Shown one piece after another: positions 43,218 to 55,207 of a DNA stretch of 64,000 nt. The translations under genes were made by a program, and so were the position numbers. Numbering within the stretch: the stretch's first letter is position 1; each line of letters opens with the position of its first letter. The notes beneath the pieces are model-generated. The model saw nothing but the letters and a program-made list of their open reading frames with translations. It ran no database searches and had not been told where the DNA came from. The stretch covers positions 3,828 to 67,827 of the forward strand of contig CAZNNO010000009.1 in assembly GCA_964574435.1 (NCBI GenBank). Reading direction: 5' to 3'. The DNA comes from an uncultured Opitutaceae bacterium. Its GTDB lineage: Bacteria > Verrucomicrobiota > Verrucomicrobiia > Opitutales > Opitutaceae.

Positions 43218-43982
43218 TCAGGACCTCGCCGACGCGCGCTGGCGGCGAGCCAGGAGCGAGAGGCCTGCCAGGGCGACGCCCACCAGGGCGGCCGTGCTGG
43301 ACGCGTCCGGGACGGCGCTTGAGCCGCTGCTAAAATTGGCCGTGAATGCCAGGTCGCCAAAGTCATAACCGTCATCCCAGGTGCCGACCTCGCCGATGTT
43401 CGAGTAATTGAACCCGCCGCCGCCGTCGTTGGCGACATGGCCGAATTCGGTGTCGCCAAAAACGCCGAAGTTGGAGCTCGGTCCGGTGAGGTCGGTCAAA
43501 TCGACGACGTAGCTGTCACCCGCCACAAGTGAAAGTCCGCCAGGGATCGTGACCGTCACCGCATCGAATGCGCCATCGGAAGTGACGGTGAAGCTCGGGC
43601 TCGTGTAGAGCGCTGGTCCCGTGGTGCCCTGGCTTGGGTTGCCCGCCTGGAGGCCGCCCGTCCAGTTGAAGACCTCGCCGATGACGGAATACTGGTCGCC
43701 GACGGCATCGGGAAGGTAGCCATCCGCTCCCGTGGCGCCGTCTGAGCTCCCGACGTAGAAGGTGTAACTGTTGAGGTAGGTGTTTCCGGCAGGCGCGACG
43801 AAGGTTTCACCGTAGGTCGGCGTGTCATCCGCCGATGCCGGGCCAAATGCGCCAATGCTCGAAGCGCCGTCCCATCCTGGGGTCGTGTCGTAGCTCTGGC
43901 CGGCACGTGCGGACGGGGAAAGGCAAACAACCGCCATTGCCCCGGCAGTTATCAGGAATTTTCTCGGGTCGAAATGTGTCAT
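43218..43982 (-). CDS. PEP-CTERM sorting-domain protein
   Basis: ATG at 43982 and a signal peptide. The C-terminus VPDASSTAALVGVALAGLSLLARRQRA is a PEP-CTERM motif, TM helix and basic tail. Confidence 0.75.
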   Translation of the reverse strand: MTHFDPRKFLITAGAMAVVCLSPSARAGQSYDTTPGWDGASSIGAFGPASADDTPTYGETFVAPAGNTYLNSYTFYVGSSDGATGADGYLPDAVGDQYSVIGEVFNWTGGLQAGNPSQGTTGPALYTSPSFTVTSDGAFDAVTVTIPGGLSLVAGDSYVVDLTDLTGPSSNFGVFGDTEFGHVANDGGGGFNYSNIGEVGTWDDGYDFGDLAFTANFSSGSSAVPDASSTAALVGVALAGLSLLARRQRASARS

Positions 43983-44449: not shown

Positions 44450-47400
44450 TCAGGGAGCCGACGACGGCACGTCGTAGACCTCGATCAATCCGGTCCCGGT
44501 GGTCCCGTTGACACCGCTCACCTGGGCCGTGTACGCGCCCGGTGGCAGGGTCGCGACAAAAGCGGAATCGGCTGAACCGGCAGGGAGCGCGAACGCATCA
44601 ACGCTGGCGATCACGGCCGCCGTGGCCGCCTGGACGCCGGCCGCGACGCTTGAATTGCCCTGGAGGCTGGCGTTGGACCAGCCGACATTGGTCGCAATGA
44701 CGTTGCCGGAGCTATCGTAAAGTGTCAGCTGCGGAGCCGCCAGGGTCCCCGTTACGCCGAAGGAGCCCAGTGCCGGCCCAACGCCGCGGATCAGGAGGGT
44801 TTCCGAGGTCGTTCCCGATACCACAAAACCCGCCACCAAGACGCTCGATCCGCTCCCAACCTGGGCCCGCGCTGACAGATTGGTCAGGTGGGAGGTGGGG
44901 GCGCCGGAGCCGGCATCGGTCAACTCGGCCATTGCGACACCGGTGGCCTGGTTCAGGCCGCTAAGCTTGGCCGTGTACACTCCTGCCGGCAAGTCTGCGA
45001 GCAACGCGCAGTCCGGGGAGCCGACCGGCAGCCCGAAGACGTTGAGCTGCGCAAAAAGGGCCGAACTGGCCGGTTGAACACTGGCCGCGATTGGCGACGG
45101 CCCTGTGGCCAGGGGGCTGCTCCAGCCGCTGTTGGCGGCAATGAGGCTCCCGGACACATCGTAAAGCGAAAGCTGGGGGCTCGCGAGCGGGCCTGCGACC
45201 TGGAAGAGGTCCAGCGATGGACCGATGCCGCGGATCAGCAGCGGCTCGGGGCCGATTCCGGCTACCGCGAATCCCGTCAAAAGGGATTGATCGTCGGTGG
45301 CGCCGACATGGGCGCGGGTGGAGGCGTCAATGAGGCGGGCGTCGGCCGTGACGCCCACGATGGCCGCACCGGTCCCAATCGAGCCATCCGGATTCGTGAC
45401 GACGGCCGTGTAGGTCCCGGCCTGATTTGTTCCGATACTGGCGAGGGTGAGCGTTGGCCCGGTGGCCCCGCCAATGGCGGCACCATTGAACAGCCATTGG
45501 ACCGTGCCCGACGCCGAGACGCTCAGCGTTGGGCTCGCACCCGCTCCAACCGTCAGTGAGGCAGGCGAGACCGCAAGCAGCGTGGCGCCCGACGCCTCCG
45601 GGGCACCCAACGCAGCGGCGCTGCCGGATCCCGGAGTGGCCACCTTGGCCGTCGAACGGGTGTTTGCAGGGATTGCCGTCACCGTCTGTGTCACGCTGGC
45701 GGCGGCTGAATAGGTGGCATTGCCGCCCTGGCTGGCAACGATCGTCACCGGGAGGAGATTCAGGATCTTAAGGCTCGTCCCGGTGATCGTGGCGTCGCCG
45801 CTCAGAACGGTGAGAGTCACGGGAAGACCTGAGGAGGCAGTCGCGCTCAGGGTGTAGGGCAGGCCCTGCATGACGGTGCCGATCGTCGTGAAATTGATCG
45901 TCTGGGAGGCCTGCGCAACCACCACGGTATAAGCCTGGCTCCCCGTGAACGGTGCGCCGACACCCGTTGAACTGTCGGTCGCCGTCACCGTGAAGGTGAA
46001 CGTTCCCGCCGTCGTCGGTCCGCCTGACAGGACGCCCCCGCTCGACAGGAGGAGACCCGGGACCGGAGTACCCGAGGTTACCAAGAAGCTGTAGGGCGGC
46101 GTGCCGCCCGAGGCCGTGATCGTCTGCGAGTAGGCGGCTCCGATCGACGTGCCCGGCAGGCTGCCCGGGCTGACCGTCAACGTGACTGAGCTGATCGTGA
46201 TCACCAGCGTGGCCGTTCCCGTCCCTGCGGCGTTTGTCGCGCCGATCGTCACGTCGAACACCCCGGCCTGGCTGGGAATCCCGGTAATTTGGCCGTTGGC
46301 CGGATTAAGGAGCAAACCGGACGGCAGGCCGATCGCGCTGAAGGACACGGGCGAATCGATTGCCGAGATGGTATAGGTCACGAAGCCGACGCCGACCGTG
46401 CCGCTTGCCGCGAGCGACGCGTCGGAAATCACCGGAGCCAGGTTCGCGGCCGCCACCCAGGTCGGCGCGATGAAGGCCGTGCCCGAGCCGACGCCGTCGC
46501 CCGAAAGAATGCTCCGGGCTCCCCCTGTGGGATTGACCGAGATCACGCTGTTGGCCGTGCCGCTGGCGCCCTCCTCGAAGTAGTAGATTGTCCCGCCCAG
46601 GGTCACGGTGGCAAATTCGGGTACGTCCAGAGCCACGCCGCTTCCGGCGCCGTTGCCGGTGACGAAAGTCCGGTCACCGGTCGAGGGATCGACACGGATG
46701 ATTCCCGAGTTAGATGACGATGTCCCTGCGTCCGAGGCGATCAGGGTGGAGGTCGAAAGGTCCCACGCCAGCCCGGTCACGGCCACGAAGGCGGAGCCGG
46801 AGCCGAGGGGACCGCTTCCTCCAGAGACCAGCGTGCGCGCACCGTTGGCTGGATTGACCGCGACCACTCCATCCGCCGTGCCCGATGCCGTCGTCTCATA
46901 GTAGTAGATTGTGCCGTTGGCAGCCACGGTTGCGAACTGGGGATTGTCAATGGCCGCCCCGCTCCCGAGGCCGTTGCCCGTAATCTGCGTGCGGTTGCCC
47001 GAGGAAGGATCCACGCCCAGGATTCCGGAGTTGTTCGCGGAGGAACCTGAATCGGACACGACCAAGCTCGATGTCGCCAGGTCCCAGGCCAGGCCGCTGA
47101 CGGCGACAAACGCCGGTCCGGTCCCGACGCCGTCGCCTGACACGAGCGCGCGGGCTCCGGTCGCGGGATTTATGGAGAAAACGCCAAGGGCCGTGCCCGA
47201 GGCTGTCGTATCGTAGTAGTAGACCGTCCCGTTTGGCGCCACCGTGACAAGGGTGGGATTATTGAGACTCACGCCGCTGCCAACGCCGTCTCCGGTGACG
47301 ACCGTGCGCGCGCCGCCGGAGCCGGCAGCGTTGATTACAGCGGCCGAAGCGGCGCTTGTACCGGCGTCGGAGACTTCCGCGTCGCCATTCACGGCGGCGC

Positions 47401-47488
47401 GCACGCCCACGGTCAGCCCGAAGCTGACCGCGAGGAGGAGAAGGTTGCTGCTAAATCGGCCCAGCGACCGGCCGAAGACGGATGTCAT
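44450..47488 (-). CDS. Large secreted repeat protein (propeller-type repeats, Ig/cadherin-like domains, duplicated C-terminal module)
   Basis: The ATG at 47488 gives the signal peptide MTSVFGRSLGRFSSNLLLLAVSFGLTVGVRA; the listed TTG at 47539 is the alternative start. Contents: three ~105-aa repeats; PSGLLLNPANGQITGIPSQAGVFDV (putative Ig/dystroglycan-like); GTYTAVVTNPDGS (Ig-like); two C-terminal NLSARAQVG...LLIRGVGP...PQLTLYD modules. Confidence 0.8.
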   Translation of the reverse strand: MTSVFGRSLGRFSSNLLLLAVSFGLTVGVRAAVNGDAEVSDAGTSAASAAVINAAGSGGARTVVTGDGVGSGVSLNNPTLVTVAPNGTVYYYDTTASGTALGVFSINPATGARALVSGDGVGTGPAFVAVSGLAWDLATSSLVVSDSGSSANNSGILGVDPSSGNRTQITGNGLGSGAAIDNPQFATVAANGTIYYYETTASGTADGVVAVNPANGARTLVSGGSGPLGSGSAFVAVTGLAWDLSTSTLIASDAGTSSSNSGIIRVDPSTGDRTFVTGNGAGSGVALDVPEFATVTLGGTIYYFEEGASGTANSVISVNPTGGARSILSGDGVGSGTAFIAPTWVAAANLAPVISDASLAASGTVGVGFVTYTISAIDSPVSFSAIGLPSGLLLNPANGQITGIPSQAGVFDVTIGATNAAGTGTATLVITISSVTLTVSPGSLPGTSIGAAYSQTITASGGTPPYSFLVTSGTPVPGLLLSSGGVLSGGPTTAGTFTFTVTATDSSTGVGAPFTGSQAYTVVVAQASQTINFTTIGTVMQGLPYTLSATASSGLPVTLTVLSGDATITGTSLKILNLLPVTIVASQGGNATYSAAASVTQTVTAIPANTRSTAKVATPGSGSAAALGAPEASGATLLAVSPASLTVGAGASPTLSVSASGTVQWLFNGAAIGGATGPTLTLASIGTNQAGTYTAVVTNPDGSIGTGAAIVGVTADARLIDASTRAHVGATDDQSLLTGFAVAGIGPEPLLIRGIGPSLDLFQVAGPLASPQLSLYDVSGSLIAANSGWSSPLATGPSPIAASVQPASSALFAQLNVFGLPVGSPDCALLADLPAGVYTAKLSGLNQATGVAMAELTDAGSGAPTSHLTNLSARAQVGSGSSVLVAGFVVSGTTSETLLIRGVGPALGSFGVTGTLAAPQLTLYDSSGNVIATNVGWSNASLQGNSSVAAGVQAATAAVIASVDAFALPAGSADSAFVATLPPGAYTAQVSGVNGTTGTGLIEVYDVPSSAP
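46460..47296 (-). repeat. Intragenic tandem repeat, three units of about 315 bp (about 105 aa each)
   Basis: Protein-level repeats start at TGDGVGSGVSLNNP, TGNGLGSGAAIDNP and TGNGAGSGVALDVP, each followed by ..TV..NGT(I/V)YYY(D/E)..ASGT.. and ..GLAWDL(A/S)TS(S/T)L..SD(S/A)G(S/T)S. Coordinates are approximate. Confidence 0.7.
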
Positions 47489-47535
47489 GACGTGGAAGAG
47501 GTGTTGAGTCCGGCCGGAGAACCATGGCGAATGAA

Positions 47536-48048
47536 TCAATTGCGGGAGGGGAAGATACCCTGGAAGGCGATGCAGAAGTTGAGGACCACGGTTGGCTGAA
47601 GCGTCGAAACCGGCACGCTGCCGCCTGCGGCACCGATAGATGCTCCCGCAAGAGCGACAGTGGGGGCCACTGCGTCGTAGATTTCCGGCCCGCTGCGCGC
47701 GGGCTGTGCCAGGAATGCGCCCGAAGGATTCTGGGTCGTGGCGCCGCCGCTACTTGCGCCCAGGCTGTGGGTATGTTGGGGCATGTTCGTCTGAAGGAGC
47801 GTCACCGACTCAGCGCCGCCCGCTTGGCCAAGATCGTAGACCCCCCCTTCCTGGTGGATCGGCACTCGGCCGCGAAAGTCCGGAAGCGCGAAGTTGTTCA
47901 CTCCATTGCCGCCATACGTCGTGCCAAGAATGGAAAAGAGAGCGGTATACTGGGAAATCGCGAGGAGCTGGCCCTGGCACTGGAACCAGCCGGTGGGATT
48001 GAAATTGAAGGAAAAGACCCTAACTTCGCCTAGAAATGGTTCGGACAT
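47536..48048 (-). CDS. Phage tail collar domain protein (MdpB/COG4675-like), paralog 3
   Basis: MSEPFLGEVRVFSFNFNPTGWFQCQGQLLAISQYTALFSILGTTYGGNGVNNFALPDFRGR and C-terminal GIFPSRN. Its stop overlaps the TTG at 47539 of the next ORF. Confidence 0.9.
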   Translation of the reverse strand: MSEPFLGEVRVFSFNFNPTGWFQCQGQLLAISQYTALFSILGTTYGGNGVNNFALPDFRGRVPIHQEGGVYDLGQAGGAESVTLLQTNMPQHTHSLGASSGGATTQNPSGAFLAQPARSGPEIYDAVAPTVALAGASIGAAGGSVPVSTLQPTVVLNFCIAFQGIFPSRN

Positions 48049-48057
48049 GGGACGGCT

Positions 48058-48582
48058 TTAGTTGCGAGATGGGAAGATTCCCTCGAGTGCAATGATGAAG
48101 CTCAAGGCCAGATACGGCTGGAGATTGCTGACGGGCTGGCTGCTGCCTGAGATGCCGAGCGCGGCCGGATTCAGGGCCACGCTGCTTCCGCCGGCGTTGT
48201 AGATGGCCTGATTGCGACCCACGTCGGCCAGCGCTGTACTCGATGACGGAGTTCGCGTGGTCCCCGCAGCACTGCTCGCCAGCAGTTGATGGGTGTGCGT
48301 CGGAAGATTTTCGGAATTAAGGCTGGTATTCTGCGAGCCAAGTGCTTGGCCTATGACGCGGGGAGAAAGCCCCGGTCCCTGTCCCTGCGACATCGGGACG
48401 CTGCTCTGGAGGTTGGGGAGGGCGAAGTTATTCACGCCATTGCCTCCGTAGGTGGTTCCCACAAGGGCGAAAAGCGCCTGATTCTGGTTGATGGCCAGGA
48501 TCTGGCCGTTGCAGAACGCCCAGCCGCGGGGCGCGAAATTTCCCGCAAAGATTCTGATTTCACCTAGGTAAGGAGAGCCCAT
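48058..48582 (-). CDS. Phage tail collar domain protein, paralog 2
   Basis: MGSPYLGEIRIFAGNFAPRGWAFCNGQILAINQNQALFALVGTTYGGNGVNNFALPNLQ and C-terminal EGIFPSRN. Confidence 0.9.
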   Translation of the reverse strand: MGSPYLGEIRIFAGNFAPRGWAFCNGQILAINQNQALFALVGTTYGGNGVNNFALPNLQSSVPMSQGQGPGLSPRVIGQALGSQNTSLNSENLPTHTHQLLASSAAGTTRTPSSSTALADVGRNQAIYNAGGSSVALNPAALGISGSSQPVSNLQPYLALSFIIALEGIFPSRN

Positions 48583-48591
48583 GGGGATGGT

Positions 48592-49113
48592 TCAGTTGCG
48601 GCTTGGGAATATGCCGAAAAGCGCGATGATGAAACTGACGACCAGGTAGGGCTGTTCGCGGGTGAACGGCTGACTGTCCCCGGTCAGGTTCACCGACCCG
48701 GGGAACAGTGTCACGTCGGACGTCGGGGCGTAAAGTGGCGGCCCGTTGCGCAGGGGCTGGCTCAAAAAGTTGCCGTTCGGGCTCCCGAGCGTCGGCGCGT
48801 CACTGCTCGCTAAAAGCTGATGGCTGTGGGCGGGCATCGTCGAATCGTTCAGCGTGACCGTCGTCGAACCCCCAGTCTGGCCAATTTCATTGGTGAATCC
48901 GCCCGGGCTGGTGCCCCAATGCAGCGGAATCCTGCCCTGCAGGTTGGGCAACGCAAACGTGGTCTGGCCGTTGCCACCATAGGTCGTGCCTATGAGGCTG
49001 AAGAGAGCGGCATTCTGCGAGATCGACATGGTCTGACCGTTGCAAAACTGCCACCCGTTCGGCGGGAAATTACCGGCAAACATTCTGATTTCTGCTATAA
49101 ACGGTTCCGCCAT
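48592..49113 (-). CDS. Phage tail collar domain protein, paralog 1
   Basis: MAEPFIAEIRMFAGNFPPNGWQFCNGQTMSISQNAALFSLIGTTYGGNGQTTFALPNLQGR and C-terminal FGIFPSRN. Confidence 0.9.
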   Translation of the reverse strand: MAEPFIAEIRMFAGNFPPNGWQFCNGQTMSISQNAALFSLIGTTYGGNGQTTFALPNLQGRIPLHWGTSPGGFTNEIGQTGGSTTVTLNDSTMPAHSHQLLASSDAPTLGSPNGNFLSQPLRNGPPLYAPTSDVTLFPGSVNLTGDSQPFTREQPYLVVSFIIALFGIFPSRN

Positions 49114-49145
49114 GGGATTGTGATTTTTGTACCGGAGATTAAGAC

Positions 49146-49664
49146 TTGCATTGCGGGGAAGGTCTGGAAGGTGATGGGCGCCTCGTGGGCGACATTGTTA
49201 CTCTGGTTGATTCGACTCCGGGCGACGAAGATTTCCTCTTCAAGGTCTACGCGGGCGTCCGCCGCGAGGAGGTGGCCGCCTGGGGCTGGGACCGCGCACA
49301 GCAGGATGGCTTCTTGAGAATGCAGTTCATGGCGCAACAGGGCGGCTACCGCGCTCGTTTCCCCGATGCCGTGTATTCAATAATCCGATGCGGCGGGATT
49401 CCCGTGGGAAGCATGATCGTCGCACGTGAAAAGGGGGAGATCATGCTCGTCGACATCGCCCTCCTGCCCGAGCACCGGCGCAAGGGAACCGGCCGGAGGC
49501 TTTTGGAGGGACTGCTCGCGGAGTCGGCCAGGACCGGGCTGCCGTTGCGGCTGTCGGTGAGGAGGGACAATCCATCCATCAGGTTGTACTCACAAATCGG
49601 ATTTTCTGTGGTCGCAGAGGACGATGTGTACCTCATGATGGAAAACGGGACGCGGTATAAATGA
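49146..49664 (+). CDS. GNAT family N-acetyltransferase
   Basis: Acetyl-CoA binding motif VDIALLPEHRRKGTGRRLLEGLL and C-terminal YSQIGFSVV. The listed start is TTG at 49146; GTG at 49185 is an alternative. Confidence 0.75.
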   Translation: MHCGEGLEGDGRLVGDIVTLVDSTPGDEDFLFKVYAGVRREEVAAWGWDRAQQDGFLRMQFMAQQGGYRARFPDAVYSIIRCGGIPVGSMIVAREKGEIMLVDIALLPEHRRKGTGRRLLEGLLAESARTGLPLRLSVRRDNPSIRLYSQIGFSVVAEDDVYLMMENGTRYK

Positions 49665-49734
49665 TGACAATCCTTAATATGTCCAAGTAATAAAAGTGAT
49701 TTGCGAATATTTTTTCCGACACCCATTCCCTGCC

Positions 49735-50322
49735 ATGCAATCCAGCCTGCGCCTCGCGGTAACCTTTGACCCGGTCCGTCTGCAAGCCGATCTCGATCGG
49801 ATTCTTACGGATGATTTTGTGCCGCATTTCAACAAGGGATACTATACCGGCGACTGGAGTGTCGTCCCCTTGCGCTCGATCGGCGGTCAGGCGCGGCAGA
49901 TCTACCCCGATCCCACGGCCAAATCCACATGGCAGGACACGCCGCTTCTGGATCGTTGTCCCTATGTGCGTGAGGTTCTTGCGTATTTCCGATGCCCCCA
50001 GCAGGCCGTGCGGTTCATGCGCCTGAAGGCCGGGTCGGTCATCAGGGAGCACCGGGACCTTGCCTTGAGCTTCAAGGACGGGGAGGTTCGCCTGCATATT
50101 CCGGTGCGCACGAACCCCGAGCTGGATTTCCGGTTTGCCGGTCGGCGGGTGGTGATGGCGGAAGGGGAATGCTGGTACCACGATTTCACGGAGCTCCACA
50201 GCGTGGCCAACCGGGGCGAGACGGACCGGATCCACCTGGTGATCGATTGCGTCGTCAACGAGTGGCTGAGCGACCTGCTCCTGTCGGAGTCCGCGCGCGC
50301 CGAGGCCCAGCAGGGCGGCTAG
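49735..50322 (+). CDS. Aspartyl/asparaginyl beta-hydroxylase family (cupin, Fe/2-oxoglutarate) protein
   Basis: The internal ATG at 49735 gives MQSSLRLAVTFDP. Motifs are MRLKAGSVIREHRD, VRLHIPVRTN, ECWYHDF..LHSVAN.G..DRIHLVIDC. The stop overlaps the convergent sulfotransferase stop (CTAG). Confidence 0.8.
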   Translation: MQSSLRLAVTFDPVRLQADLDRILTDDFVPHFNKGYYTGDWSVVPLRSIGGQARQIYPDPTAKSTWQDTPLLDRCPYVREVLAYFRCPQQAVRFMRLKAGSVIREHRDLALSFKDGEVRLHIPVRTNPELDFRFAGRRVVMAEGECWYHDFTELHSVANRGETDRIHLVIDCVVNEWLSDLLLSESARAEAQQGG

Positions 50323-51284
50323 CGCTGCCGCGCCGTTTCCAGCTGTTCGTACAGGCCGCCGAGCCAGACCTGCGCCCGGCGCCGGATTTCCCCCGTGGCC
50401 TCCTCCTGCTTGGCGGCTGAGTCCGCTTGGAAGGCGAACGATGGATTCTTGGCATCGCGGAGGGCGGCAGCGCCCATGCCCGCCTCCTCCTCCGGCGTGA
50501 ATTCGGCGCCGAAATGGCGGGCTATCGCGGCCGGCACGGCCCCGGGCAGCTCGCGGTAATTGACGAGGAGTCCCCGGCCTCGCCCAGTGAAGGCCAATGC
50601 AGCCTTGCAAATCTGCGCCAGGACGCGGGCGGCGTATTCCCCGACGGCGGCCGGGTCGACGCTGGCCGGATCTAGGCCAAGCCGCCGGGGATTGACAAAG
50701 CCAGGGACCGTCTGTGCGCCCGGCACGCGGTGGTGAGAGACCAGCACCTCGACTGGATCACGGTAGAGGAAGATCCACGGCACGCCGGGGAAGGCATCGA
50801 GGATCGCGGGCAACTCCAGGAGATGCCAGCTGTCGAACTTGACGAAGAACCGTGTCTCGGCGCCGCGCGGCCGGGCCCATGCACTCATGAGGCCCCGTAG
50901 CGAGGCGATCCGCGGGTCCGGCGCCGAGGCGCTCATCGGAAAATTGAGCACCTGGTCGAAGGGCGGCGGCTCGGAGACGACGATGTTCGCAGCGACGGCG
51001 GCCAGCATCTGTGAAACCAGCGTCGAGCCGCACCGCGAAAGGTGAAAGACGAATCCGGTGGGCGGGATGCCTGGGCTATCGCGGGCGAGGGTTTCCAGGA
51101 AACCGATCGGGGATTCCCTTCGGAACAGCATGCGCGCGGGATGGCCGAGGGCGTGATTGACCGTCTGCTGGAAGAAGGGATCGGTAAAACGTATGCCGTG
51201 GAAATTGGCCCAGTCGACGACGGGTCCCGACGGACCCCGCCGGACAGAGATCGGCATCCAGTCGCGCCACCGGGAGCTGTTCAC
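50319..51284 (-). CDS. Sulfotransferase family protein
   Basis: 5'-PSB-like loop HLSRCGSTLVSQML and 3'-PB-like FLYRDPVEVLVSHH. The GTG at 51284 overlaps the upstream stop; ATG at 51257 is an alternative. Confidence 0.75.
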   Translation of the reverse strand: MNSSRWRDWMPISVRRGPSGPVVDWANFHGIRFTDPFFQQTVNHALGHPARMLFRRESPIGFLETLARDSPGIPPTGFVFHLSRCGSTLVSQMLAAVAANIVVSEPPPFDQVLNFPMSASAPDPRIASLRGLMSAWARPRGAETRFFVKFDSWHLLELPAILDAFPGVPWIFLYRDPVEVLVSHHRVPGAQTVPGFVNPRRLGLDPASVDPAAVGEYAARVLAQICKAALAFTGRGRGLLVNYRELPGAVPAAIARHFGAEFTPEEEAGMGAAALRDAKNPSFAFQADSAAKQEEATGEIRRRAQVWLGGLYEQLETARQR

Positions 51285-51505
51285 GGTCCGATCCGCCCGC
51301 GCCAGGATCCGCAGGCCGCCGACCAGGCGTCTCGGACCTGGAGCGACGTGAAAACCAGGCCCCTGGCCCGCCCAAGCTCGACGGCCCGATCCGCCATCTT
51401 CTGCACATCCTGAAACACGCCGAGATCCTCCAGCAGCTCGGGCTCCTCCTGCACACGGGCGCTAAACGCCTCGAATGCCGCGCCGGGATTATCCGCGGGC
51501 TTCAA
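51281..51505 (-). CDS. Small Nif11-like domain protein (74-85 aa)
   Basis: AFEAFSARVQEEPELLEDLGVFQDVQKMADRAVELGRARGLVFTSLQV matches the Nif11 N-terminal domain pattern (L..F...V..D..L...L........V..A.E.GF.FT..EL). The TTG at 51505 overlaps the upstream TGA (TTGA); the listed TTG at 51538 would overlap the upstream gene by 37 nt. Its stop overlaps the sulfotransferase start. Confidence 0.5.
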   Translation of the reverse strand: MKPADNPGAAFEAFSARVQEEPELLEDLGVFQDVQKMADRAVELGRARGLVFTSLQVRDAWSAACGSWRGRIGP

Positions 51506-51894
51506 CCGAAGCGATTGAAAATCGCCCGGTAGAAGCAATCGGCGCCGGACTTCGAGCCGGGCACGACGAGGACCGCCATGCGGCCCATCTCGGGGTGCAC
51601 GAAATCGTAGGTGCCCTGGGCCAGCTGCCTGCGGGAATCCCCGCGGAAGCGCAGGGAGGCGGTCTCTATGCCCTGGGATCGCCGGTGACTCACGTCGTCA
51701 AGCGTCAGGCGTTGCGCTCCCTCCGGGCCCGCCACTTCAAAAGAGGTCCCGCGATAACGGGTGAATGCGGCTCCAGACCAACCCTCGGGTCCCACCGCCG
51801 CCGCTCGGGGCTTAGAAAGCCAGCCGACGGACGGGGCGACCGCAAGGGCGGCCGCGCCAACGGCAAGATCACGGATGAAATCGCGTCGTTGCAT
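51502..51894 (-). CDS. Small Tat-signal protein of unknown function
   Basis: ATG at 51894. Twin-arginine motif MQRRDFIRDLAVGAAALAVAP. 130 aa, with a beta-rich C-terminal domain ending YRAIFNRFG. Confidence 0.6.
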   Translation of the reverse strand: MQRRDFIRDLAVGAAALAVAPSVGWLSKPRAAAVGPEGWSGAAFTRYRGTSFEVAGPEGAQRLTLDDVSHRRSQGIETASLRFRGDSRRQLAQGTYDFVHPEMGRMAVLVVPGSKSGADCFYRAIFNRFG

Positions 51895-51957
51895 TGTCTA
51901 ATAGAGACCAGTAGGCAGGCTGGTCGTCCGCGTAAAGGAAAAATCCTCAACAAATTC

Positions 51958-52989
51958 ATGTCCGCACCCGCAACACCCCTCGCCGCGGCCACCGACCCCG
52001 GCTCCCTCGGCGTCTTTCAGGTCAAGCGGCTCTGGTCGCGCCACATGGCCGCGCGCCAGGCCCGCGCAGCCGGCGCTCCCGGCGAATCGTACCGCGACAT
52101 GCTGGTGATCCACGCGCTGGGCCTCGGTCTCGAGCCGACCCTGCAATTTCTGTACCGCAAGGGCCCTTCGTTCGAGGAATTTGAGCGTTGGATTGTGGCC
52201 ACGGCGGGGGCGCCCGATCCCGTGCAGGCGGCCCGCATCAATGCTGCAATCGCCGGGACCGAGGCTCCGGAGGAGTCCCGCCGTCTCCAGGCGGCCGTCG
52301 ACTCGGCGCCGCCGGTGCTTTCGCCTGCCGATATGGCATTCTGGGAGGAGCACGGCTACGTCATCGTGCACGACGCCGTTACGGCAGAAATGTGCGCAGC
52401 GACCGAACGGGTGATCTGGGAGCATCTGGGCATGCGGCCGGACGAACCCGGCACCTGGTACTCGGAACGCACCCAAGGAATCATGGTGCAGCTTTTCCGG
52501 CACGCCGCCCTGGACGCGAACCGGCGGTCGCCGCGCATCCACAAGGCCTTTGCGCAGCTCTGGGGAACATCGGACCTCTGGGTCACAACGGACCGCGTGG
52601 GCTTCAACCCGCCGGAGCGGCCCGGATGGAAATTCCCTGGGCCTGACCTGCATTGGGACGTCAGCCTGTATCCGCCGATGCCCTTCGGCACGCAGGGGAT
52701 CCTCTATCTGACCGACACGCCGGCGGAGCAGGGGGCCTTCACCTGCGTGCCGGGATTTCACCGGCGGCTCGCCGCCTGGCTTCAAAGTTTGCCGCCGGGA
52801 ACCGACCCTCGCAGGGAGGACATTCACGCCTTGGGTTCAAAGCCCATCGCCGGTCGCGCTGGCGACCTCATAATCTGGCACCAGGGCCTTCCCCATGGGA
52901 GCCGCCCCAACCGGGGAACCCGCCCACGATTGGTCCACTACATCAATATGTATACGGCGCACCTCGAGGAACAGCCCACGTGGCGCTGA
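51958..52989 (+). CDS. Phytanoyl-CoA dioxygenase (PhyH) family Fe/2-oxoglutarate oxygenase
   Basis: The internal ATG at 51958 gives MSAPATPL. FWEEHGYVIVHDAV, LHWDVS (HxD), ILYLTD and GDLIIWHQGLPHGSRPN are PhyH-type motifs. The upstream part of ORF 51475..52989 overlaps minus-strand genes and is rejected. Confidence 0.8.
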   Translation: MSAPATPLAAATDPGSLGVFQVKRLWSRHMAARQARAAGAPGESYRDMLVIHALGLGLEPTLQFLYRKGPSFEEFERWIVATAGAPDPVQAARINAAIAGTEAPEESRRLQAAVDSAPPVLSPADMAFWEEHGYVIVHDAVTAEMCAATERVIWEHLGMRPDEPGTWYSERTQGIMVQLFRHAALDANRRSPRIHKAFAQLWGTSDLWVTTDRVGFNPPERPGWKFPGPDLHWDVSLYPPMPFGTQGILYLTDTPAEQGAFTCVPGFHRRLAAWLQSLPPGTDPRREDIHALGSKPIAGRAGDLIIWHQGLPHGSRPNRGTRPRLVHYINMYTAHLEEQPTWR

Positions 52990-53478
52990 GATTCCGGGCA
53001 ATACTGCAAAGGATTGGCTTTGCCGATTCCTCTGAAGGCGAAGTTGCCAGGCGCTGCATCCCATGGATCGAGGCGTCGCAAAATTTGGAAAAGTGTAAAC
53101 GTACAACCAATTTTGTCGGCATTTCTTACGATTTTTGGGTTGTGACTCTTGCCGCTCGAAAGGCAGTTCAAGATGATTGATCTGGTAATGAGCGCTGTAG
53201 AATGGCTTATATTGGAATGCCGATTGATAGCTGAATCCAAAAACTTGCGGCACAATTAATGCTTTGTTTTTGCTGCCGTTTCATGCCGTGTTGGGTCCAA
53301 CTTAAACCTGCTGAAGTAGGCAATTTCCCGTAGTGTATCAGTTTGGGGTGCGGGAGATGCCCCAAATCCCCAACGGGAGGGCCGTTAAGTGCGAGGGGCA
53401 CTTCCAGGCCGTTTTTGCCATCCCGCTTATCCATCGTCGTTGACCCGAAGGGGGTCGAAGGCGGACCCTAGCAAGCGT

Positions 53479-54360
53479 ATGACCATTGTACTTGGTTTCG
53501 CATGCAAGGATACCCTGATTTTCGCCAGCGACAGCCAGATGGGCCTAATCGGGGACACGTTTAAACGGTGGGATGAACCCAAACTTAGCTCCGTCCAGTT
53601 CAAGAATCATGTGCATGCAATGGTTGGGATTTCGGGGGTTTTGGATTCAGCCAATTACTTTCAAGACATTTTCGAACGGAGAGCTTTGAATGCTGTCGTT
53701 GAGAGCTCTCAGGATATCGCAAACGTCGCAGAGGAATCCTTCAGGGAAACGCGGATCAAGTTTCTAGAGTACGTCGATGACGGGGTAATGACCCTAGAGG
53801 CCAAGCAAAGGCATTTAGACAGCCTTCATTTTGCGGTCCTACTGGGATGCTATTGGCAAGATAAGCCGCACCTATTCGTGGGGGATTTTTATCACGGCAG
53901 GCTAAAGCGAAGCCGTCGCCCTTTTGAGGCCATCGGATGCGGCCACAATATCGCAAGTTTTGTCTTAGCTGGATGCGACCTACCCTCGCTTAATTTTAGC
54001 GATGGCTTGGGCGTGGCTGTTTATGCGGTAGAAAAATGCAAGAAATTCGACGACGCATGCGGCGGCCCAGTTCAGCACTTGATCGTGAACGATGGATGGA
54101 ATGGCTACCCGTTTTCATTTCCACCATGGATTCTGGACGTTTACGCTAGGGCCACGGAAGCTCTCGATAAGAAAATGCCTCAAATGCTGATCTCAGTAAT
54201 TTCTGAGGAGATTAAAAAGGTGGCTGATCAAGTGAGCCGAGAAGTAGCGGAACGATCTAAATTCACGCCGCCTTCTCCTGACTCATGGAATCCATCATCC
54301 GAACCACGTCCGTCATCTCCCAAACCTGATCCGCAACACCCGCCTGCATCGCCGGGGTGA
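53479..54360 (+). CDS. Orphan HslV/proteasome beta-subunit-like Ntn hydrolase; 3' end runs into an IS element
   Basis: The internal ATG at 53479 gives M-TIVLGFACKDTLIFASDSQMGLIGDTFKRWDEPKL (Thr directly after Met; Asp17 and Lys33-34 equivalents), GISGVLDSANYFQDIFERR (equivalent to GGTADAFTLFELFERK in HslV) and EAIGCGHNIASFVLAG (GSG-loop equivalent). The last ~33 codons (54263-54360) are antisense to the transposase gene and Pro/Ser-rich. Confidence 0.65.
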   Translation: MTIVLGFACKDTLIFASDSQMGLIGDTFKRWDEPKLSSVQFKNHVHAMVGISGVLDSANYFQDIFERRALNAVVESSQDIANVAEESFRETRIKFLEYVDDGVMTLEAKQRHLDSLHFAVLLGCYWQDKPHLFVGDFYHGRLKRSRRPFEAIGCGHNIASFVLAGCDLPSLNFSDGLGVAVYAVEKCKKFDDACGGPVQHLIVNDGWNGYPFSFPPWILDVYARATEALDKKMPQMLISVISEEIKKVADQVSREVAERSKFTPPSPDSWNPSSEPRPSSPKPDPQHPPASPG

Positions 54361-55145
54361 CCCGAAGCGTCGTATGAATCCTGCAAAAATTGTAATGCAT
54401 GAAGTAGAGTGCCAAGGCATGTCCATGGTTCTCGACCTTCTTGGAGAATCCGTTTGTAAGGCGGGTGAACCGGCGCATTCCCATACGCATCGTCAGGTTT
54501 TGACGCTCCACATAGCTTGTGGAAATCCCGCCCGACTGGGGCTTGCCGGTGACAACCGAAACCTTGGTGCCCGTGCATTTCGGGGGGCTGGAACGTCCTC
54601 CTCTGGAACCGTCCTCGAAGATTTTGACGAGTTGGGCGTAGTCAACGTCGCCAGCAAACGCGCTCTCGACGGCGACCAAGTAGGGCTTGTGGGCGTCTGT
54701 GGTAAGCTGGACGCGGTGGGTGAGGCGGGAAGCCAAGTCGTGCATGAACTCAACCGCAGCGCCCGTGTTCCTGTTGCCGACCAGCCAGCACGGGATCAGC
54801 TTCGTTTCGGCGTCAATGGCCGTCCAAGTCCAAACGTCGCCGTAGCCGAACTGCCCTCGCTTGTCCTCGGGCACGTTCTTCTCTTTCGCGTAGCAGAAAG
54901 ACCAAATTTCGTCGCACTCAATCCGCTTGCAGGTGAGGTTGCGGAACGCCCCGTCTTGGTACTCCGAGCACGCTTGCCCGGCTTCAATCTGGAGCTTGAC
55001 GACCGTGTTGATGGCGACTCCGCAAAGGCGAGCAGTTGCCCGAATGCTGACCCCTTCAACGAGGCAAGAAAGGATGCGGGCTCGGTTTTCGATGGGCAGT
55101 TGGTTCATGCCTTTCACGATACGAAATATCGTTTAGCGGTCAAGC
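54245..55145 (-). mobile_element. IS1-family insertion sequence (boundaries approximate)
   Basis: A single transposase ORF in a lower-GC context. Only an imperfect candidate terminal inverted repeat was seen by eye (around 54245-54265 and 55118-55140, sharing an AACGAT core). No target-site duplication was verified. Confidence 0.45.
54263..55108 (-). CDS. IS1-family DDE transposase
   Basis: MNQLPIENRARILSCLVEGVSIRATARLCGV (HTH), CDEIWSF, WTWTAIDAETKL, TDAHKPY and YVERQNLTMRMGMRRFTRLTNGFSKKVENH..ALALYFMHYNFCRIHTTL. ATG at 55108; GTG at 55117 is an alternative. Confidence 0.85.
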   Translation of the reverse strand: MNQLPIENRARILSCLVEGVSIRATARLCGVAINTVVKLQIEAGQACSEYQDGAFRNLTCKRIECDEIWSFCYAKEKNVPEDKRGQFGYGDVWTWTAIDAETKLIPCWLVGNRNTGAAVEFMHDLASRLTHRVQLTTDAHKPYLVAVESAFAGDVDYAQLVKIFEDGSRGGRSSPPKCTGTKVSVVTGKPQSGGISTSYVERQNLTMRMGMRRFTRLTNGFSKKVENHGHALALYFMHYNFCRIHTTLRVTPAMQAGVADQVWEMTDVVRMMDSMSQEKAA

Positions 55146-55207
55146 ATTTTATATCATCAAAAACATGAAACAAATACTAGCAAAAGAACGAGTTACAAAA
55201 CTATCAC

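Follow-up and report, generated by a model that had tools for sequence, protein, structure and literature searches.

A stretch of 64,000 nucleotides from an uncultured Opitutaceae bacterium (contig CAZNNO010000009.1; the whole stretch is referred to below as the window) contains three tandem genes for small proteins with the Collar domain of phage tail fibres. The three genes belong to a cassette of non-phage genes that recurs in ten phyla. In the explanation that agrees best with the data, which we put forward tentatively and at slightly less than an even chance of being right, their products would form a three-chain knob at the cell envelope, with enzymes of its own that tailor it and a large exported protein as its partner. 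To our knowledge, no function is known for any of the stand-alone Collar proteins (COG4675, RhiB/MrpB). A first-pass annotation of the window had described the triplet and the large gene that follows it as a single operon, confined to positions 44450-49113. The locus turned out to be larger (about 8.5 kb, 44450-52989) and to be arranged as four short transcription units, and on the other side of the triplet it contains, besides the tailoring enzymes, the two partners found to be conserved across phyla (a GNAT acetyltransferase and a DUF6916 protein).

The identification of the three proteins as COG4675-type tail-collar paralogs was borne out. Each of them scores between 93 and 102 bits against PF07484 (Collar), well above the cut-off of 24 bits (E 1e-27 to 1e-29), and their pairwise identities are 50-52%, the mutual distances being about equal. 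They are stand-alone proteins of around 170 amino acids (aa) in which the Collar match begins at residue 7-8, with no shaft ahead of it, and which in addition contain a PxHxH motif and a conserved C-terminal strand. The alignment of the three paralogs has 63 invariant columns, including the HxH pair (H96 and H98) and the C-terminal GIFPSRN; in 18 relatives H96 and H98 are likewise invariant, and only G167 and P170 are retained of the C-terminal motif. The identity of this heptapeptide in the three proteins and the 9-nt gaps between their genes, both pointed out before, are exact, with spacers that read TGA-ACCATCCCC-ATG and TAA-AGCCGTCCC-ATG. The resulting start-to-start distances of 531 and 534 nt put all three genes in one reading frame. 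The N-termini (MAEPFIAEIR, MGSPYLGEIR and MSEPFLGEVR) show no hydrophobic signal segment, in agreement with the earlier observation that none of the three collars has a signal peptide. In the genome (4.26 Mb, 92.5% complete) the only Collar matches were these three proteins, and Collar genes were found in 9 of the 61 Opitutaceae genomes searched (60 genera). No match was obtained in NCBIfam for the collar proteins or for the large protein.

The distribution of such genes was studied by a collar-seeded scan (from an alignment of 8 sequences, with one genome per species), which yielded 80 loci in 10 phyla at roughly 50% identity; the gene content of the loci was scored with hidden Markov models built in this analysis. 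The Collar loci (n=89) have three tandem genes in 73 cases, four in 2, two in 1 and one in 13. At the loci with three or four collar genes (n=75, 10 phyla) a GNAT gene adjoins in 65 and a DUF6916 gene is present in 62. A survey of triplet neighbourhoods had been proposed as a check on the coupling to the large gene; it finds a large neighbour to be frequent, but it is GNAT and DUF6916 that emerge as the partners conserved across the phyla. The same is seen closer to home: in five other triplet-bearing Opitutaceae genera the recurring neighbour is the GNAT, encoded on the triplet strand in four of them, and not a large protein, and small DUF6916 (Pfam) proteins recur beside these triplets too. 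The GNAT of the window is 34-37% identical to those in the triplet operons of four Opitutaceae genera. Cassette-bearing loci were also found in Myxococcus, Mesorhizobium, Bradyrhizobium and Paenibacillus, and the stand-alone Collar family as a whole is very large, with 44,980 cluster representatives at E <=1e-3. A full-text literature search returned no paper on DUF6916 and none on bacterial collar triplets that are accompanied by these partners.

The cassette is carried by large, mostly non-mobilizable plasmids and chromids as well (74 PLSDB records, most of which have three places each). One example is plasmid pDFI2 of Deinococcus ficus (L160, NZ_CP021083.1, 379633-395118), with three genes annotated as 'tail fiber protein', a GNAT gene and a beta-helix protein nearby. 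In some proteins the collar domain alone (residues about 3-100) is repeated within one chain, as in L028:7943-8833 (G048) and in P0002 (4832 aa, 12 stretches), an architecture in which the domain is used otherwise than in the triplets of full units.

Do the three window collars form one complex or three? The first-pass annotation had suggested an obligate heterotrimer, and the idea fits, indirectly, with the three-fold copy number, the orthology of the gene positions, the natural fusions and a virophage precedent. Orthology was derived from a FastTree phylogeny of 228 proteins of about 170 aa. On this tree the label for gene position changes 26 times, versus about 105 times after shuffling, and pure positional clades have 40-64 members. 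Window paralogs 1, 2 and 3 pair one-to-one with positions 1, 2 and 3 of another Opitutaceae assembly, L109 (support 97-99). More specifically, paralog 1 has its ortholog at position 1 of L109 (support 97) and groups with the canonical position-2 proteins, paralog 2 has orthologs at position 2 in L109 (support 99) and L057, and paralog 3 at position 3 in L109 and in a further Opitutaceae assembly, L110. A Burkholderiales locus likewise has counterparts that pair with paralogs 2 and 3, and both paralogs fall within a 26-member clade of which all members come from loci with a sulfotransferase and/or a hydroxylase, 12 of them being single-gene.

The alternative is that the paralogs make three separate homotrimers of different ligand specificity, and thus a small repertoire rather than one complex. 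This would be in line with the homotrimeric nature of phage Collar proteins such as T4 gp12 and gp37, with the about equal distances between the window paralogs and with the existence of single-gene cassettes, both among all loci (13 of 89) and, 12-fold, in the clade of paralogs 2 and 3. A repertoire, however, would be expected to vary in copy number, yet 73 of the 89 loci have exactly three genes, and the positions are orthologous across phyla. Moreover, the natural fusions consist of exactly two or three units, of different classes: a representative library contained at least 18 seamless three-unit collar proteins (496-595 aa) and about 29 two-unit ones, and the fusions P0004, P0041 and P0099 have one unit of each canonical class. 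Finally, there is a triplet that has been shown to be a heterotrimer, namely that of the virophage DSLV2, of which the three consecutive Collar proteins co-purify 1:1:1 and bind Synechococcus cells (PMC12724248). Separate homotrimers therefore seem distinctly unlikely to us.

A connection between split and single-chain forms is also suggested by the reading frame. All three genes lie in one frame in 23 of 88 split triplets (including those of the window, L109:3798-5384 and L148:4688-6256), where 1/9 would be expected; the binomial probability is 7e-5, for samples that are non-independent where genomes are related. The shared frame fits repeated fission and fusion between the two forms. Six of the three-unit fusions (P0004, P0007, P0013, P0017, P0040 and P0143) start with a classical Sec signal peptide, so that at least in these lineages the product should end up outside the cytoplasm.

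Several observations weigh against a simple transfer of the heterotrimer to the window. The deep nodes of the collar tree are weak, the window collars do not correspond one by one to the canonical classes (they fall outside the position-1 and position-3 clades), and the clade of paralogs 2 and 3 also contains single-gene, presumably homotrimeric, forms. An AlphaFold2 (AF2) model of the in-frame read-through fusion (23 paired rows) was poor overall, with a mean predicted local distance difference test (pLDDT) score of 53.6 and a predicted template modelling (pTM) score of 0.47, and a Foldseek search with this model returned no matches. In favour of the idea, pLDDT values of 80-89 were reached in exactly three segments of the model, each comprising HxH and head. 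We consider the idea that the window collars may assemble as a heterotrimer well supported, albeit indirectly.

The two conserved partners give some indication of what could happen to the collars. The GNAT has its nearest solved relatives, at a weak level (E 3e-5), in RimI and N-terminal acetyltransferases. In this respect it is of interest that 264 of 294 collar sequences have Ala, Ser or Gly as their second residue; the conserved start M-[AS]-[EDQ]-P-[FY] would fit removal of Met followed by N-terminal acetylation. For the DUF6916 protein the AF2 model predicts a six-strand beta-barrel (residues 41-130, pLDDT about 95). Foldseek matched this model to Psb28, a diffocin baseplate protein, a Mu-like 43-kDa tail protein and tail tube proteins, all at E >0.002 and TM <=0.42. 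Homology to these proteins, some of which are phage tail tube or hub barrels, was not concluded, the matches being too weak. A twin-arginine (Tat)-like signal, as present in the window protein, was found on 34 of 114 DUF6916 open reading frames (ORFs), and 21 of 26 loci with two copies have exactly one copy with such a signal.

Besides these partners the window has a hydroxylase, a sulfotransferase with a Nif11-like partner and a PhyH-type oxygenase, and it represents a rarer variant of the cassette. A hydroxylase and/or sulfotransferase gene lies alongside collar genes at 39 loci in 8 named phyla. In five other loci the GNAT and the hydroxylase are fused into one polypeptide, in the same order as in the window, and a search seeded with the sulfotransferase gave 50 loci, with Collar in 32, hydroxylase in 34, GNAT in 26 and DUF6916 in 27. 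L109 and L110 show full synteny with the window locus: a Nif11-like homolog is found at the matching place in both, and PhyH is syntenic in both and also present in L144 and L145. The best solved relative of the hydroxylase is L-proline cis-4-hydroxylase (4p7w, E 9e-10); for the sulfotransferase a sequence search found no solved relative. A 463-aa ORF of L026 and L027 was dropped as a neighbour family, because it turned out to be read antisense to the GNAT and hydroxylase genes. The alignment column that best separates the variant is the C-terminal residue of the collars, which is Asn in 84% of the collars from hydroxylase/sulfotransferase loci versus 27% elsewhere, a difference that is confounded with phylogeny. 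Positions 25 and 48 likewise favour Asn over Asp in these loci, with the same confounding. The C-terminal Asn (residue 173 in the window) and positions 25 and 48 are possible candidate modification sites.

The presence of these enzymes can also be read differently, with the genes constituting a cluster for a ribosomally synthesised and post-translationally modified peptide (RiPP), or for a small molecule, to which the collars would be accessory, e.g. as carrier or immunity factor. The Nif11-like ORF is translationally coupled to the sulfotransferase gene, the nearest solved relatives of the hydroxylase act on free proline, and all enzymes lack signal peptides. The Nif11 match, however, stays below the Pfam cut-off (18.9 versus 23.8 bits), no protease, transporter or cyclase typical of RiPP clusters was present among the window ORFs scanned, and GNAT and DUF6916 accompany the collars in most loci that have neither hydroxylase nor sulfotransferase. 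We regard such a cluster as highly improbable.

Next to the triplet lies the large gene. Its ORF (44450-47539, minus strand) would encode 1029 aa if read from a TTG codon, but the ATG at 47488 is more probably the start, as it is followed by a signal-peptide-like sequence (MTSVFGRSLGRFSSNLLLLAVSFGLTVGVRA). With this start the large gene does not overlap the third collar gene but begins about 47 nt beyond its end; the collars had been said to run straight into the large gene, and what holds is that it follows them directly. The N-terminal domain of the protein (46360-47400, residues ~30-350) has no Pfam family. It comprises three units of 107 aa that each consist of two sub-repeats of ~52 aa, six in total, so that it would be a six-blade, pseudo-threefold structure. 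The repeats are followed by He_PIG immunoglobulin (Ig) domains (Pfam) and by a duplicated C-terminal module of ~145 aa. In L109 and L110 the gene at the matching position shares the N-terminal domain (64% and 43% identity, respectively); this domain (~370 aa) is the only conserved part, the remainder being swapped for MBG or FG-GAP domains.

The C-terminal module (44450-45340 in the window) is usually duplicated, ends at the stop codon and also occurs in the Verrucomicrobia L022 and L158. It has 58 matches in the window's own genome, at the ends of ~30 large ORFs, and is probably a lineage-specific anchoring or sorting domain. Directly 3' of the large gene (43218-43982, minus strand) a 254-aa protein is encoded with a VPDSG-CTERM signal, just under the Pfam and TIGRFAM cut-offs.

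After a family-level comparison the large protein had been dismissed as a non-conserved partner, a verdict that was overturned by a wider sample of loci. An ORF of at least 1500 aa lies within 800 bp at 37 of 69 triplet loci, versus 3.6% of random spans, and one of at least 1200 aa lies near the triplet at 44 of 69, versus 11%; nearly all of these are on the collar strand. A looser test (ORF of at least 800 aa within 2.5 kb) is uninformative in high-GC DNA, where 59% of random spans from the same genome pass it. A large exported neighbour is thus a conserved trait of triplet loci. By BLAST, the canonical giants at these loci (62 proteins, 58 loci) group into a single cluster, one member having a right-handed beta-helix.

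The proposed coupling to a large protein consequently stands for the trait, but not for the particular protein of the window, which is no homolog of the canonical giant. With phmmer, the window protein matched the 109 large ORFs of related loci (the 62 canonical giants included) only in the lineage-wide C-terminal module, in one ORF, and the conserved region of the canonical giants had no match anywhere in the window's own genome. By its sequence, the protein is a non-homologous, lineage-specific substitute for the canonical giant that recurs only in two related Opitutaceae. The occurrence of its C-terminal module in ~30 proteins of the genome further implies that, beyond the three related genomes, the adjacency could be incidental. 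Both points count against the knob acting with this protein.

The large gene might accordingly be a chance neighbour, a lineage-specific surface protein next to a unit that consists of the collars, GNAT, DUF6916 and the tailoring enzymes only. Next to the missing homology, the 58 matches of the C-terminal module and the ~47 nt gap, it speaks for this possibility that about one third of the triplet loci lack a nearby large ORF. Against it, the N-terminal domain of 370 aa follows the triplet in two further Opitutaceae genomes despite the swapped remainder, a large neighbour on the same strand is found across phyla at roughly 15 times the chance frequency, and there is no terminator-like site between the third collar gene and the large gene. 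A scan of the window locus for promoters and terminators performed no better than on shuffled sequence. We consider a chance neighbour unlikely, though it is an alternative to be taken seriously.

As the collars resemble phage proteins, the locus could be thought of as a decayed prophage or tailocin, in which they would be leftover fragments of a tail fibre. NCBI annotates homologs as 'tail fiber protein', and PHROG tail families match the collar proteins, e.g. phrog_9116 (tail protein) over residues 7-165 of paralog 1. With phmmer, the same paralog matches T4 gp12 and the long tail fibre 8kec, and these matches extend through the HxH motif. An IS1-like transposase and a stretch of lower G+C content are located 1.3 kb beyond the cassette. 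The PHROG matches, however, are confined to tail-fibre families and to the collars, profiles of 455-1024 positions being matched over an internal stretch only, and no other phage structural gene appeared in scans of the window. The collars themselves are shaftless, intact and conserved across phyla at about 50% identity, and the same non-phage partners recur with them in 10 phyla. The genomic neighbours are cellular genes (for an aminotransferase, an MFS transporter and a beta-lactamase-fold protein). A prophage remnant is exceedingly improbable on these grounds, and the putative knob is, judged by its gene context, a cellular device and not part of a prophage. Nothing was found that points to a bacteriocin-like apparatus, as had once been suggested, and the PADLOC defence models had no match among seven cassette proteins.

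The G+C content is 55-58% at 53000-55200, just beyond the cassette, and the IS1-like transposase lies there at 54263-55117 (minus strand), 1.3 kb past PhyH. The collar genes themselves have a G+C content of 58.5%, versus about 66% elsewhere. The low G+C, the transposase and the patchy occurrence in the Opitutaceae fit horizontal acquisition.

From these data we propose the following for the envelope knob. The three genes would provide the three different subunits of one heterotrimer, each chain being a free-standing, shaftless copy of the collar-plus-head unit that makes up the tip with which phage tail fibres bind their receptors. On the pseudo-threefold axis, a metal ion is probably bound between the HxH pairs, which are invariant in the three chains. 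The dedicated GNAT most likely acetylates the Ala, Ser or Gly that is exposed at the N-terminus upon removal of Met, and the small DUF6916 beta-barrel is predicted to be exported via Tat in the variant of the window. Decoration of the knob or of its partner is probably the task of the oxygenase, which resembles Asp/Asn- or Pro-hydroxylases, of the sulfotransferase with its Nif11-like partner and of PhyH. The knob would most likely reside at the cell envelope with the adjacent large exported protein and function in adhesion or in the recognition of a ligand, probably of the glycan or lipopolysaccharide (LPS) type. Two considerations argue against parts of this scheme. As the collars lack a signal peptide and only about one third of the DUF6916 proteins have a Tat signal, hitch-hiking via Tat is not a general route of export, and the targets of the GNAT, the hydroxylase and the sulfotransferase could also be small molecules.

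A bolder version can be formulated, in which a metal-centred heterotrimeric lectin knob is assembled in the cytoplasm, acetylated, hydroxylated and sulfated by enzymes of the cassette, taken through the membrane by the Tat-dependent DUF6916 protein as a folded passenger and docked on the outside onto the pseudo-threefold domain (3 x 107 aa) of the neighbouring surface protein. We think this improbable in its entirety, but if true it would describe a recognition organelle that is derived from phage, fully cellular and post-translationally tailored.

Stand-alone Collar proteins appear in soil metaproteomes (PMC5579227). That the triplets are fixed and come with an acetyltransferase and a small barrel protein of their own, that natural fusions exist, and that one branch has its own hydroxylase and sulfotransferase make the problem of their function experimentally tractable. 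The concrete hypothesis is a three-chain knob, and its chemical read-outs would be mass shifts of +42, +16 and +80 Da. The case would exemplify the adoption of a phage receptor-binding module by the cells of at least ten phyla, to which the window adds a variant with tailoring enzymes, natural three-unit fusions and a non-canonical large partner.

Table 1. Genes of the collar cassette in the window, with positions, strand and characteristics.
Feature	Position	Strand	Characteristics
Large exported protein (predicted), 1012 aa	44450..47488	-	signal-peptide-like N-terminus, repeat domain, He_PIG Ig domains, duplicated C-terminal module
Collar paralog 3, 170 aa	47536..48048	-	PF07484 E 7.8e-27
Collar paralog 2, 174 aa	48058..48582	-	PF07484 E 6.9e-28
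Collar paralog 1, 173 aa	48592..49113	-	Collar domain, HxH motif, head segment, C-terminal GIFPSRN; PF07484 E 1.3e-29
GNAT acetyltransferase	49146..49664	+	divergent from the collar genes; GNAT Pfam families
Asp/Asn beta-hydroxylase-family 2-oxoglutarate oxygenase	49696..50322	+	PF05118 E 6e-19
Sulfotransferase-fold protein	50319..51284	-	PF13469 E 1.5e-7
Small Nif11-like protein	51281..51538	-	overlaps both neighbours; Nif11 PF07862 E 0.0018, below cut-off
DUF6916 protein	51502..51894	-	twin-arginine (Tat) signal MQRRDFIRDLAVGAAALAVAP; PF21880 E 3e-16
PhyH-type 2-oxoglutarate oxygenase	51970..52989	+	PF05721 E 1e-14

Among the known systems that resemble the window triplet is that of virophage DSLV2, which likewise has three consecutive small PF07484 genes with positional conservation across relatives and subunits of about the same size. 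Its heterotrimer was established by co-purification and its binding to cells by enzyme-linked immunosorbent assay, the proposed LPS receptor resting on docking (Chu et al., J Virol 2025, PMC12724248). The virophage genes, however, adjoin the capsid gene and form a fibre of the virion, whereas the window contains no viral genes but a GNAT, DUF6916, tailoring enzymes and a cellular exported protein, and its heterotrimer is a predicted one.

The fibre tips of phage T4 (the C-terminal domain of gp12, PDB 1OCY/1PDI/5IV5, and the tip of gp37) match the window at the sequence level in the Collar domain; the match of the 8KEC long tail fibre to the window collar runs through the PxHxH motif and the C-terminal strand, and that of the PHROG tail families covers nearly the full length of the collars. 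Phage fibres differ in being homotrimers of 385-1024 aa with long shafts that are anchored to the baseplate, where the window has three shaftless paralogs outside a phage.

Cellular, non-phage Collar proteins are also represented by RhiB and MrpB (COG4675, 'microcystin-dependent protein'). RhiB, encoded in the rhiABC operon of Rhizobium leguminosarum, carries a Collar domain (PMC13133039), and MrpB of Microcystis has been described as highly similar to it (PMC3328848). Unlike the window, these operons encode a single Collar protein alongside RhiA/MrpA-type proteins, and rhiABC is controlled by quorum sensing, whereas no luxI or luxR genes were seen at the window.

A further comparison is with the canonical cellular cassette, which consists of three Collar genes, GNAT, DUF6916 and a giant Ig/beta-helix exoprotein. 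The window shares with it the three collars, the GNAT and DUF6916 but has neither the canonical giant nor the short cytoplasmic copy of DUF6916, and it adds the hydroxylase, the sulfotransferase, the Nif11-like protein and PhyH.

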